DNA from: Acidobacteriota bacterium
GTDB lineage: Bacteria > Acidobacteriota > Vicinamibacteria > Marinacidobacterales > SMYC01
Assembly (NCBI GenBank): GCA_004356105.1
Contig: SMYC01000026.1
Coordinates: 11,020-75,019 of the forward strand
DNA length: 64,000 nt
Direction: 5' to 3'
A program made the position numbers and the translations under genes. The notes under the pieces were generated by a model. It was given only the letters and a program-made list of their open reading frames with translations, was not told where the DNA came from and ran no database searches. Below are positions 47,671 to 52,168 of this stretch, piece after piece. Numbering within the stretch: position 1 is the first letter of the stretch; every line of letters begins with the position of its first letter.

Positions 47671-50600
47671 ATGAAAGCCAGGGTCAGCAAGGCCTATCGA
47701 TCCCTCGCGACGCGGTACGACAATCAAGGCATCCGCACCAAGCTCTTTGTGGCTCTGGCCGGGCCGCTCGCCTTCGTCGCGATTATCGGACTCCTTTACA
47801 GGAGCAGTGTTGACACCCTTGTGGAGACCTCGCGATGGGTGGAGCACACACAAGATGTGATCGCGCGTGGTCAAGAGCTAGGCAAGCTGATGATCGACAT
47901 GGAGACCGGTGAGCGGGGCTTTCTGATTACCGGCAAGGAGATTTTTCTCGAGCCTTTCGTCGACTCCCAGGGAGTGTGGAATCAGAAGATGTCCGCGCTC
48001 CAGCAGCTCGTAAGCGACAACCCAAGACAGGTTGATCGCCTCAATGCGATTGACGCTTTGGAAAAGAGCTGGCTCGAGAAGGCTGCCGCGAGGGAAATCG
48101 ATCTGAGGCGAACGGTTCCAGAGCCAGATAAGGGCCTGACCTACATGCAAGAGGTTCTGCGGCGGAAAACCGGCAAGGACATCTTGGATGAGTTTCGCGT
48201 GATTCTGGATGACCTCAACGAGGATCTCGACAAGTCGAAAAACACCAAGGCTCTAAACTTGCTGGTTGCCATCCACAAAGCAATGGTGGACCAAGAGACG
48301 GGAGAGCGAGGCTTTCTTATTACGGGAGCCGATGACTTTCTCGAGCCTTACTTCCGAGGACAACGGGATTTGGCGAAGAGCCTGAGCGTACTGCGGATGA
48401 TCGTGGGAGCGGGGCAGTCCAGAGAGGAGCGACTCGAGCGGATCGCCTCGATTGAGGCTCGAATTGAAGAATGGCGGACGAGTGTCGCCAACCCCAACAT
48501 CGTTCTGAGGCAAGAGGCTGACAAGATCATAGAAGGTGTAGAAGGTGTAGAAGCAATAGCAGGGCTGCAGACTGAAATCGTCAAGGCAAGGGGCAAAGAG
48601 ATCCTCGACGGGATTCGTGCCGAGTTAGCCGTTCTCGGAACGGGCTTCAGTAGAGCTCAAAACACAACAGGACGAGGCTACGTGTTGGCTCTCACCCGAG
48701 AGATTGTACAGGAAGAGTCGAGTCTGAGAGGGTTTTTGCTCAACGGTGATGACGCGGAGCTGGCCCGCTATCGGGCCGGCGGAAAAAGGGTGGCTGAGGG
48801 CCTAACCGCCCTGAATGAGCTAGTTAGTTCCACTCACAGCCAGGCAGAGTTGCTAGAGAGAATCGCAGACCTGGAGGCCAAAGCTGACCAATGGAGGCGG
48901 CAAGCTGCCGAACCAGAGATCTCCGCAAGACGAGAGATCCTCGAGTCTGGTGCGAGTCCCATTGCCCGGGGACAGCGGATCCTTCGAGAGAGCGCTAATA
49001 GCTCCGAGCTAGAGCAAGTTCGCTCCTTGCTCGAGGAGCTATCGCGAGCCTTTGCCACTGCGAAGCTCACGAAGGAAGAACTTCTCACTGCTCGCTTGGC
49101 CGCCGACGTCGAAGAGATCCAGCGTGGTCTGATCCAATACATGTTCATCGGCGCAGGCGAGCTTGACGCGATTCGCGAGGCGGATATCGCGGCCAACCTG
49201 CTGCTCGCTCGACTCAGTTCTGAGTTGCGCGTTCCCGCGAGCGAGCAACGTTCACAGATCGTCGCGATGATCGACGCGATTCGAATCAACAAGCGCCTCT
49301 GGTTTGATAGTCAGGTCGAAATTGCGAGGCGGGAAAGGGAAACAGAAAGCACGCGTGGGCAGAGTAGGCTGCAGGTCATTCAGGAAGTGCTGGTTCAAGC
49401 CCGGGGAAAGACCCTTTTGGACGAAATGCGCGTTCTGTTCGATGAGGTGGCGACGGGCTTCGTCGATGCTCAGCATCTTCGAGGGGAAGGGATGATCTTG
49501 GGCCTTGCGCGAGACATGGTAGACATGGAGACCGGTGAGCGTGGCTTCCTGATCACTGGAGAAGAGTCGTTCTTGGAGCCTATGCGCGCTGGCCAACAGA
49601 GATTCACCGAGGGAATTCCCAAACTTCAATTGCTGATCTCCCAATACCATGACACCTCAGGGATCGTGGCAGCTCTTGACAAGATCGAGGAAGAGGGCGC
49701 CCGCTGGCGCGCAACATATGCACAGCCGCTCATATCCAAACTTCGAGCGGGAGAGCTCTTTGGAGATGACTGGTCCCTCGAGGCAGGATACATCTTCATG
49801 GACCGACTCACCCATCAGATGGGACGACTCGAAACAGCCTTCGAGGAGTCGAATAAAGAGTCAGGCACGGTTCTGGTTGAGGCGCTGCGAACGAGCCTCG
49901 CAGACCAAGAGACCGGGCTCAGGGGCTTCTTGTTGACGGGCCGAGAGTCCTTCCTCGAGCCCTATGAGTCAGGTCGCGCAGCTCTGGCAGACCATGTCGC
50001 CGAGCTTCGGGCTCTTGCGTCTGTAACGTTCGACAAAGAAGCCATGTCGAGAAAGGTCGAGGAGCTACGGCTGCTAGAGGCTCGCTGGAAAAAGGACGCT
50101 GCGGAACCAGAGCTCGCGCTGCGGCGGCGGGTCAATGTGTCCGCTGCATCCATGGCAGACGTCACACGTTTGATTGAGGCAGAGACGGGCAAGAACATCA
50201 TCGACCAGCTCAGAGCACATCTCACGGAATTCATTGCTGTCGAAACCGATCTCATGACAACCCGACAGCAATCGTCTGAGACCGCTGCTGCTCGGGCGAC
50301 CTCGCTCGCTACGCTAGGAACGGTACTGGCGCTAATTCTTGCACTCGGTGTGGCTTACTTGGTCTCGAGCTCCATCGTGAACCGGCTTCAGAATCTCCTT
50401 GGTGCAACCCAGCGTGTGGCAGAAGGACAGTACGACGAGAAGATTGCGATCGACAACGACGACGAAATCGGCGAGCTCGGCGTTTCTTTCAACCTCATGA
50501 CTCGATCCCTCGAAGCGACGCGCGCCGATCTGTTGCGAGCCACCTCTTCCAAAGGCCACTTCCTGGCCAACATGAGCCACGAAATTCGCACGCCTATGAA

Positions 50601-52168
50601 TGGGATCATCGGCATTCTCGATCTGCTCCAAGATACAAAGCTAGACAAGGAACAACGCGGGCTTCTGGACACCATGCAGTCATGCGGGACCAGCTTGGTC
50701 ACCATCATCAATGACATCCTCGACTACAGCAAGCTGGAATCGGGGCAGATGCTCTTTGAAAGCAGGGATGTGAATCTGAGAAAGCTGGTACAAGACGCCA
50801 TCTTCCTTTACTCCGCTCAGGCCTTGAAAAAGTCCATTGTTGTGCGGTCAGAGGTGGCGCCCGAGGTTCCAGAAGCCGTCGTTTCAGACCCGGTGCGCCT
50901 CGGACAGATTCTCCACAATCTGCTCAGCAACGCCGTCAAATTTACCGAGGAGGGGCACATCTTGCTTTCGGTGCGGGTAGTTTCTATCGAGGACCAGCAA
51001 GCGACTCTCCGCTTCGAGGTCAGGGATTCCGGTATCGGAATGCCCCAAGACGTGCTCGAGAAAATCTTCGACGACTTCGTGCAAGCTGATACGTCGACGA
51101 CGCGACGTTTTGGAGGTACGGGCCTGGGCCTTGCAATCACGCAGAGACTCACCAAACATATGGGCGGGCGCATCTGGGCCGAGAGCAAAGAAGGTCTGGG
51201 GAGCTCCTTCTTTTGCGAGATTTCTCTGCCCGTTGCCGAGGCTGTGCCAACGCAAACCACAGAGCACAGACCGTCTCCAGAGGGCAAGCCACTAGAGACA
51301 GTGAAGACGGAAGCACCTGCCCAAGCCGAGGACAGAGTTTCGGAGTCTGCGCAAGGCTTGAACATTCTCGTGGCTGAGGACAACCCGATAAACCAGAACA
51401 TCACGCGCGCGCTGCTGCAAGCCTTGGGACACCATTGCACCATCGCAGAGGACGGGCTCGAGTGCCTGCGCGAACTGGAGCAGAATGACTACGACCTGAT
51501 TCTCATGGATGTTCAGATGCCAGTGATGAGCGGCTTAGAGGCGACGGAACGCATCTGCCAGGAGCGAGGCGAGAAACGGCCTCCCATTATCGCGCTCACG
51601 GCCAACGTCTCGCCCCAAGATCAGGCCCCGATACAAGGCGGCGGGGATGGATGGCTTCATTTCCAAGCCGACGACGCGCGACAACATCACTCAGGAGATC
51701 GCCAGACTAAATATCGTCAAGCGGGACAAAAGCAGTCATACGGTTCGGCTGGCAAGTCAGAAGACGCCTGCTATGGACCCTCGACTGATGATGCTGATGG
51801 ACGACCAACCTCTAGAGCACGAGTCCGTGGAACGCGCTCTGCGTGACAGCGACTGGCGTCTGGAGTCTGTCGAATCGGGAGAGCAGGGGCTCAAACGCCT
51901 CAAGTCTTTAACGCCCGCGATAATCTTCGTCGATCAAAACATGTTAGCGCTCAACGGCATCAGCACCATCGAAGAGATTCGCAAGCGGGCTCACCTGGAT
52001 CAAACCCTGGTGTTCTTGTGCACTGCCGGCAATGCCACATCCAGCATGGTGGCCAAGCTCGAGCGGCTCGACGCCGAGTATTATCCCAAAGATCAGCTGT
52101 GGCGAGACAAGCTACTCCCGCTGCTAAATGAGCTCTTTGGCGACGACCAGAAGCGCCTGGCCGGCTAG
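47671..52168 (+). CDS. hybrid sensor histidine kinase/response regulator with five tandem CHASE3 modules (frameshift near 51640)
   Basis: TM, then five ~130-aa CHASE3-type repeats (DMETGERGFLITGKEIFLEPF, DQETGERGFLITGADDFLEPY, EESSLRGFLLNGDDAELARY, DMETGERGFLITGEESFLEPM, DQETGLRGFLLTGRESFLEPY). Then TM, HAMP, HisKA (SHEIRTPMNGI), HATPase_c, and REC (ILVAEDNP...LMDVQMP). The end of REC and a second REC-like domain continue in the +1 frame (MDGFISKP...). Confidence 0.85.

Follow-up and report, generated by a model that had tools for sequence, protein, structure and literature searches.

We analyzed a 64,000-nucleotide stretch of contig SMYC01000026.1 from an Acidobacteriota bacterium, referred to below as the window, and in it a large gene on the forward strand (47671..52168, +). 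The product of this gene is a class I hybrid sensor histidine kinase, as judged from its Pfam domain content and motifs. The list of open reading frames (ORFs) contains two plus-strand frames at the locus, namely 47572-51846 (1424 aa from the first ATG) and, in a different frame, 51647-52168 (173 aa). Read as it stands from the ATG at 47671, the gene gives a 1391-aa product ending at 51846, with the second ORF separate; after removal of one C from 51626-51629 it encodes 1498 aa. The window protein is identical to database protein P0001 and to NCBI entry TDI47967.1, which begins at 47572 and is named 'MAG: response regulator [Acidobacteria bacterium]'. The public records choose different starts: NCBI uses 47572 (1424 aa, 'response regulator') and JGI uses 47671 (1391 aa). 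The start at 47671 lies about 23 residues before the first transmembrane helix (TM1), as in the homologues, and a purine-rich AAGAG precedes it by a few bases. The name 'response regulator' conceals the sensor architecture of the protein.

The order of domains is a cytoplasmic N-terminus, TM1, an all-helical periplasmic sensor of about 830 aa, a second transmembrane helix (TM2), HAMP, HisKA, HATPase_c and two receiver domains, REC1 and REC2. A hydropathy scan found two hydrophobic segments only, at aa ~24-43 and ~876-898. TM1 (aa ~24-43; 47740..47799, +) is preceded by a Lys/Arg-rich cytoplasmic N-terminus, and TM2 (aa ~876-898) continues without a break from the last periplasmic helix, D6 (aa 839-875), the two together occupying 50185..50364 (+; AF2 helix, hydropathy). 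Because the N-terminus is Lys/Arg-rich and HAMP follows the second hydrophobic segment, residues 44-875, which contain the repeats, are predicted to be periplasmic. This stretch is 30.6% charged, has a net charge of -31 and contains zero cysteine. HAMP (aa 898-948; 50362..50514, +) scored 46.4 bits with Pfam, HisKA (the DHp domain; aa 961-1025; 50551..50745, +) 81.4 bits and HATPase_c (aa 1073-1186; 50887..51228, +) 106.2 bits. From motif positions, the phospho-acceptor in the H-box SHEIRTP (at 969) is predicted to be His970, with its codon at 50578-50580. The motifs NAVKFT (1087), DSGIG (1119) and GGTGLGL (1148) follow, and the H-box, the N, G1 and G2 boxes and the receiver aspartates were all intact in the motif check. 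A first-pass annotation of this DNA had described the product as a giant hybrid histidine kinase whose extracytoplasmic sensor, placed between two transmembrane helices, contains several CHASE3 modules. The Pfam content and the hydropathy scan agree with that description, except that the sensor is about 830 aa long and not ~880.

We counted the modules of the sensor with Pfam and with profiles derived from the family. In the whole protein, read from the ATG at 47671, Pfam detected CHASE3 (PF05227) with 370.8 bits (E 3.4e-112) in 5 stretches, where the gathering score of the family is 28 bits. When the sensor was cut into six overlapping pieces, Pfam scored 116.7 bits for aa 54-188, 87.6 bits for aa 193-322, 60.8 bits for aa 340-459, 72 bits for aa 611-717 and 90.8 bits for aa 736-867, with zero matches on the fourth piece (aa 440-595). 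A repeat hidden Markov model (HMM), seeded with the modules of the window protein and iterated across 120 homologues, found six modules, at aa 50-175, 179-315, 319-450, 454-586, 590-695 and 717-847, with a constant period of about 131-138 aa.

Module 1 (aa 50-175; 47818..48195, +) is canonical, with METGERGFLITG...FLEPF, and scored 136 bits with the repeat HMM. It is the most conserved position of the family (mean 144 bits to the position-1 modules of homologues) and matches 3VA9 in the PDB with E 5e-8. Module 2 (aa 179-315; 48205..48615, +; 122 bits) is likewise canonical, with QETGERGFLITG...FLEPY. Module 3 (aa 319-450; 48625..49020, +; 98 bits) is partly degenerate, having EESSLRGFLLNG and no FLEP; its last helix, D3, is degenerate too, with a score of about 0 vs 1.4-2.2 in other D helices. 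At position 4 lies a cryptic module (aa 454-586; 49030..49428, +) that reached 38 bits over model positions 1-131 of the repeat HMM. Canonical modules follow at position 5 (aa 590-716; 49438..49818, +; 92 bits), with METGERGFLITG...FLEPM, and at position 6 (aa 717-847; 49819..50211, +; 138 bits), with QETGLRGFLLTG...FLEPY. At all six positions helix C has an invariant or nearly invariant tryptophan (W134, W268, W408, W544, W679, W806), and module 4 retains it although it has lost the motif. The sensor is therefore an array of six tandem CHASE3 modules, four of them (1, 2, 5 and 6) canonical, one (3) partly degenerate and one (4) below Pfam detection.

Five modules, the number first proposed for this protein, is the count that Pfam gives, and one could suppose five modules plus an unrelated helical spacer, the more so as Pfam finds nothing on aa 440-595 scanned by itself. 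We consider this very improbable. The supposed spacer has the length and the helix pattern of a module, and it aligned over its full length to an HMM made from other proteins with all position-4 modules excluded (25 bits, E 7e-10). With hhalign, the profile of position-4 orthologues matched the position-2 profile at 99.9% (E 8.5e-32) and the position-6 profile at 99.6%. Moreover, Pfam alone counts 6 CHASE3 stretches in the homologues P0003, P0004, P0007 and P0008, and in P0003, P0004 and P0007 the position-4 module is fully canonical. The statement that every module keeps the ETGxRGFLxTG...FLEPY core was accurate for modules 1, 2, 5 and 6 (ETGxRGFLxTG...FLEP); it does not extend to module 3, which has RGFLLNG only, or to module 4. 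The repeats were assigned to CHASE3 and not to related helical families: we did not obtain any Pfam match to HBM (PF16591) or 4HB_MCP_1 (PF12729) at E up to 1 in the whole protein or up to 10 in the six pieces.

A repetitive gene may also arise by duplication during assembly. Apart from the repetitive look of the sequence nothing favours this, and we regard its probability as negligible. Protein identity between modules is only 24-34%, and the longest DNA repeat inside the gene is 72 nt at 72-74% identity, which argues against an assembly duplication. Further, we compared modules one by one with those of 29 six-module homologues. Same-position modules scored 144/103/90/39/97/114 bits for positions 1 to 6, vs 19-79 bits across positions, so that the same six positions are individually conserved in proteins of other organisms. 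Each module being closest to its counterpart at the same position elsewhere, the six-module array is older than the divergence of the family, with its positions maintained separately. The protein belongs to an old and rare family, each of whose six positions is conserved in its own right. The internal modules 2, 3 and 5 resemble one another, while module 1 resembles the first and module 6 the last modules of shorter arrays. An origin of the array by duplication of a three-module unit (2x3) was considered and rejected, as no such pattern was present in the score matrix.

Relatives of the sensor region numbered 292 at E 1e-5 or better. After clustering at 90%, 30 of them cover 78-100% of the sensor with six modules, one being N-terminally truncated. 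All full-length members have six modules, and P0002-P0030 share 31-47% identity with the window protein over 95-100% of the sensor. The window protein thus belongs to a six-module CHASE3 kinase family, having six abutting modules, position-specific orthology and HAMP-HisKA-HATPase_c-REC after them. Carriers are mostly marine Gammaproteobacteria, the named sources including Cycloclasticus, Bermanella, Maricurvus nonylphenolicus and an Osedax symbiont. Searching 1.84 billion representatives with the six-module profile gave 11,074 matches with E no higher than 0.001, and 389 with E no higher than 1e-30. In the 150 best matches the maximum number of stretches was six, and about 13 six-module representatives were seen in this database. 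A recount of 250 proteins with the repeat HMM found 88 two-, 113 three-, 4 four-, 3 five- and 40 six-module proteins, and two of the 3 five-module proteins are truncated six-arrays. The outputs of two- and three-module arrays include kinase, chemoreceptor and GGDEF/EAL domains. Among the matches listed in a scan of GTDB species genomes, most were single-module, at least 8 were two-module and at least 1 was three-module, with no six-module protein; the phyla of the two- and three-module proteins listed include Nitrospirota, Nitrospinota, Desulfobacterota and Gammaproteobacteria. Since hundreds of two- and three-module arrays occur with various outputs and in various phyla, tandem CHASE3 is a recurrent design with six modules as its rare upper end, and the uniqueness implied for a multi-CHASE3 kinase did not hold. 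Among the papers of the searchable library that mention CHASE3, we found no description of tandem arrays. The six-module kinases therefore seem to belong to a much larger, apparently undescribed population of tandem CHASE3 sensors.

Two side observations concern this distribution. Proteins P0066, P0077, P0080, P0087, P0088 and P0183 have three (once five) CHASE3 modules that do not abut and are separated by regular spacers of ~36-40 aa; they are mostly chemoreceptors, and this subfamily suggests a second route to building arrays. The G+C content, measured over 46000-52000 of the window, is 0.55-0.58 in the kinase gene; the amidohydrolase gene just upstream has 0.64-0.66, and the downstream sequence about 0.59-0.61. 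The record carries the label Acidobacteria, whereas nearly all named six-module relatives are marine Gammaproteobacteria. Horizontal acquisition of the kinase gene is possible.

We then considered how the modules might fold. A model of aa 1-947 was obtained with AF2 (AlphaFold2) from a 28-sequence alignment. It was entirely helical, with a predicted local distance difference test score (pLDDT) of 83.3 and a predicted TM-score (pTM) of 0.59. One helix (21-87) consists of TM1 running on into helix A of module 1, and another (839-917) joins D6, TM2 and the start of HAMP without a break. Each period contains helix A (~27 aa, ending in ETGxRGFLxTG), helix B (~27 aa, starting with FLEPY), helix C (~36 aa, with the Trp and AAEPEI), a short variable C-to-D segment and helix D (~22 aa, GKxILDxIR...). 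The pLDDT dips at 151-160, 281-300, 421-440, 561-570, 691-700 and 821-830 coincide with the C-to-D connectors and not with the Pfam borders, whereas the D-to-A turns, which are the Pfam module junctions, have only about 3 residues and pLDDT above 90. In Foldseek searches 3VA9 was the top specific match (probability 1.0, TMt 0.63). Besides 3VA9 and talin R7R8, the whole model gave only non-specific long-helix matches in the PDB.

Next, we assessed which module each D helix evolves with. Across the 29 six-module proteins, the similarity of D(n) to its consensus was correlated with that of A-B-C in the following module (raw r = 0.76; within positions, pooled r = 0.59; each junction 0.41-0.73), and not with that of its own module (raw r = -0.09; pooled r = 0.10). 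A variant with position-specific consensus gave r = 0.59-0.80 with the next module at the five internal junctions. D3 is degenerate along with module 4, whereas D4 is canonical. Covariation, measured as mutual information with average product correction (MI-APC) over 412 module junctions from two-, three- and six-module proteins (effective sequence number, Neff, 344), pointed the same way. For the N-terminal 'GKxILD' half of D, which Pfam places at the end of module n, 18 of the 689 pairs formed with A and B of module n+1 exceeded the 99th percentile; of the 1118 pairs formed with A, B and C of its own module, 0 did so (Mann-Whitney p = 4e-13). In a closure test on 229 proteins, the last D helix had 17 of 1118 top pairs with the first module vs 6 of 1118 with its own (p = 0.013). 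In module 2 of P0005, P0008, P0009, P0011, P0024 and P0029 the C-to-D connector carries (AE)n inserts of variable length (AEAEAEAE...), at a site that aligns to aa ~285-305 (nt ~48523-48585) of the window protein, which has no inserts.

Because rate correlation, covariation, the AF2 confidence dips and the connector indels concur, these results suggest that the folding unit is offset from the Pfam border, D(n) packing with A, B and C of module n+1. The closure test further suggests that D6 may close a membrane-proximal four-helix bundle with A1-B1-C1. Tandem CHASE3 sensors would then be nested: one membrane-proximal bundle, formed by A1-B1-C1 and the last helix, would hold as many as five four-helix units, each circularly permuted, within the connection from C to D. 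We give this nested arrangement an even chance.

The simpler expectation is that each Pfam module A-B-C-D folds alone, like beads on a string, and that the extended chain spans the periplasm or offers six independent ligand-binding sites. The module borders given by Pfam and by the repeat HMM do follow that register, and when D1-A2-B2-C2-D2 was modelled in isolation, its own D2 also reached pLDDT 83-91. However, the top covarying pairs of D lie with the next module and none lies with its own, its divergence rate follows the next module, and both the confidence dips and the indels fall at the C-to-D connectors rather than at the tight D-to-A turns. A linear ruler, which the first-pass annotation had raised, is also unlikely on topological grounds, because a four-helix unit would enter and leave at the same end and both termini of the chain must reach the membrane, so that a monotonic rod would be awkward. 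We therefore consider independent beads distinctly unlikely and favour nested bundles over a rod.

The C-terminal part of the gene is interrupted. REC1 (aa 1232-1343 after repair; 51364..51700, +; Asp1280 at 51508-51510) gave 68.8 bits with Pfam in the unrepaired protein, over aa 1232-1317, and the match stopped at model position 84 of 111 because of an extra C in the run CCCC at 51626..51629 (+), which is read as ...CAG GCC CCG ATA.... With one C deleted the sequence reads ...SPQDQARYKAAGMDGFISKP... and encodes a continuous 1498-aa protein with two complete REC domains; Pfam then matches REC1 over model positions 1-110 of 111 and reports two REC stretches in the C-terminus. The site lies between the motifs ALTAN (beta4) and AAGMDGFISKP (beta5), and the BLAST alignment to the receiver of P0003 crosses the junction without a break. 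Since the repaired REC1 is complete and this alignment is uninterrupted, the frameshift is inside REC1 and not between the receivers. Two C-terminal receivers split by a frameshift near 51640 had been proposed. Both receivers and a frameshift are present in the sequence, and the position is corrected to 51626-51629. REC2 (aa ~1374-1471 after repair; 51791..52084, +; Asp in IIFVD) scored 53.5 bits on ORF 51647-52168 and is present in the shifted frame only. As the sequence stands, no intact receiver is fused in frame with the kinase; one appears only after the one-base repair. After the kinase core, the product would thus run through a broken REC1 into 70 residues read out of frame; REC2 would be made only from an internal start.

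To judge the frameshift we compared the window with a second assembly, JGI contig Ga0114950_10001818 (16.2 kb, metagenome 3300009030), which aligns to it without gaps over 14,340 bp at 99.95% identity. The 7 mismatches are all outside the kinase gene, and the same CCCC is present. If the extra base were a sequencing or assembly error, the organism would make an intact 1498-aa two-receiver kinase. Such an error would concern a single base in a homopolymer, the rest of the gene is intact including all catalytic motifs, and, with no SNP between the assemblies within the gene, the reads may be common to both. In addition, an orthologue from Maricurvus is split in one genome record and intact in an independent read assembly. 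Against this, the 78.9 kb NCBI contig, from a metagenome-assembled genome (MAG), and the JGI contig were built separately and differ at 7 positions, yet both have CCCC. A homopolymer of four bases is also short for a systematic short-read error. The run shared by the second assembly favours a real lesion, and we hold an error to be possible but rather unlikely. A genuine recent lesion is the most likely explanation, and the gene is probably broken in the first receiver in the genome of the window. Programmed +1 frameshifting at GCC-CCG-AUA was set aside as unlikely, because P-site re-pairing would be impossible there in the +1 frame.

The orthologue of Maricurvus nonylphenolicus (P0021, P0127, P0129; BFM15420.1/BFM15419.1 and a Logan assembly) is also split, at the start of REC1. 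Its 1297-aa product matches the intact 1685-aa Logan version up to ~1253, and a separate 426-aa 'response regulator' resumes at 1260. An interruption at the boundary of kinase and receiver is thus seen in two of about 30 family members.

The likely signalling path can be sketched from established two-component chemistry. A change in the periplasm would shift A1 and D6, and this shift would be transmitted via TM2 and HAMP. His970 would then autophosphorylate, the phosphoryl group would pass from His970 to Asp1280 of REC1, and from there it would reach an unlinked Hpt protein and a response regulator, neither of which is encoded nearby. Some orthologues have a C-terminal Hpt, which the window protein does not have. 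We compared five genomic contexts (the window, a Cycloclasticus MAG, a Bermanella MAG, GCA_002163355.1 and an ENA metagenome contig), and an adjacent response regulator or Hpt was absent in all five. By analogy, our best guess for the stimulus would be a physico-chemical cue in the envelope such as ionic strength: for the CHASE3 kinases studied so far, CfcA, KipF, RsfS and RsbK, links to salt, ionic strength, respiration or general stress are described, and no ligand is defined (PMC10950880). The array may also integrate several signals, as the first-pass annotation proposed.

Our best explanation of the locus as a whole is a hybrid kinase with six CHASE3 modules, a sensor that is probably nested and a frameshift in REC1, and we estimate its probability at about 0.72. 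Several points weigh against it. D6 and module 1 showed no correlation in rate (r = 0.11), and the closure covariation was modest (p = 0.013, as given above). The AF2 model of D1-A2-B2-C2-D2 gave fair confidence to both D helices and so did not discriminate between packing partners; against four-helix sensor domains it reached Foldseek TM-scores of only 0.3-0.4. The statistics behind the nested packing derive from sequences and are confounded by shared ancestry and by class differences between first, internal and last modules. No ligand, partner or conserved neighbour was found in the five genomic contexts. As regards the frameshift, the independence of the two assemblies is incomplete: their sequences are identical over the whole gene, and both may go back to related read sets.

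We compared the protein with known systems. CHASE3 belongs to the 4HB_MCP clan together with 4HB_MCP_1, TarH and HBM (PMC9769921; PMC8846402), and its function is described as unknown (PMC8846402). The single-CHASE3 kinases (P. putida CfcA, B. cereus RsbK, M. smegmatis RsfS, S. melonis KipF) and R. palustris HK9 likewise place PF05227 between two transmembrane helices, with the motif at the A-B turn and a HAMP/HisKA/HATPase_c output, often as hybrids with REC. The structure 3VA9, from R. palustris HK9, is the only PDB relative of the window protein (profile E 3e-11, Foldseek probability 1.0); its CHASE3 domain is a four-helix bundle and, for the nitrate-binding domain of McpN, the nearest neighbour in structure (PMC6381276). 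These kinases differ in being described with one domain of 130-150 aa (PMC10950880), whereas the window protein concatenates six without an intervening transmembrane helix, and its folding unit appears, from sequence comparison, to be shifted by one helix. The two- and three-module proteins (for example P0035, P0034 and P0066) share the abutting period of ~131 aa, have terminal modules that are similar to modules 1 (first) and 6 (last) of the window protein, and contributed to the junction covariation. They are shorter, and their outputs vary (MCPsignal, GAF, PAS).

More than one four-helix bundle within one pair of transmembrane helices is also found in the HBM domain of McpS and in the trimodular ligand-binding domain (LBD) of S. 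meliloti McpZ (PDB 8F7N), which PMC11804620 cites as the first trimodular LBD; HBM itself is in the same Pfam clan as CHASE3 (PMC9769921). The window protein differs in having no HBM match, and its relation to McpZ is not apparent: Foldseek to 8F7N gave E 1.1 and probability 0.10, and no sequence match to 8F7N was obtained in PDB searches with the window protein. Unlike HBM and McpZ, the window sensor has short internal helices (22-37 aa) and true sequence repeats. In both HBM and McpZ, long helices reportedly span the stacked bundles. GlnX of C. glutamicum has more than one 4HB/CHASE3-like periplasmic bundle per polypeptide, one of two being CHASE3-like (PMC9769921), but two extra transmembrane helices separate the bundles and there is no kinase. 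The best multi-bundle Foldseek match by probability was the talin rod R7-R8 (0.89, 335 columns), a eukaryotic cytoskeletal protein with no sequence relation and a TM-score of only 0.25, so that the likeness is an analogy only. Talin R7-R8 is a precedent for a helical bundle nested in a loop of another bundle.

Most ligand-binding domains have one module and some have two, and the first trimodular structure, that of McpZ, dates from 2023 (PMC11804620). This range of module numbers is widened by the conserved six-module sensor and by the large number of unreported CHASE3 arrays with two or three modules. CHASE3 is a widespread sensor domain (PMC8846402). The likely nested construction, which is suggested by the sequence statistics, is the most interesting lead. 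If true, the six-unit family would be the largest multimodular helical periplasmic sensor known, and bacterial sensors would have a simple rule of growth, unit insertion at one loop. If the unit is shifted, experimenters who screen for ligands would have to place the ends of their constructs one helix off the Pfam borders. The question is then raised whether the extra bundles add ligands, cooperativity or tuning of a physico-chemical response such as that to ionic strength. For the genome of the window itself the message is smaller, as the first receiver is probably broken.

The kinase gene lies between genes of other functions. A scan for promoters and terminators gave nothing above shuffled expectation. 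Downstream are a TPR protein on the minus strand (52222-53550, -) and a PALP enzyme (53311-54633, +). Upstream, all on the plus strand, are a DUF5916 protein (42445-45060, +), a cupin (45087-45584, +) and an amidohydrolase (46095-47402, +). The DUF5916 protein (871 aa) is unrelated to the kinase; its domain is preceded by a Pro/Ala-rich N-terminal region of low complexity, and it is probably an outer-membrane or secreted protein.

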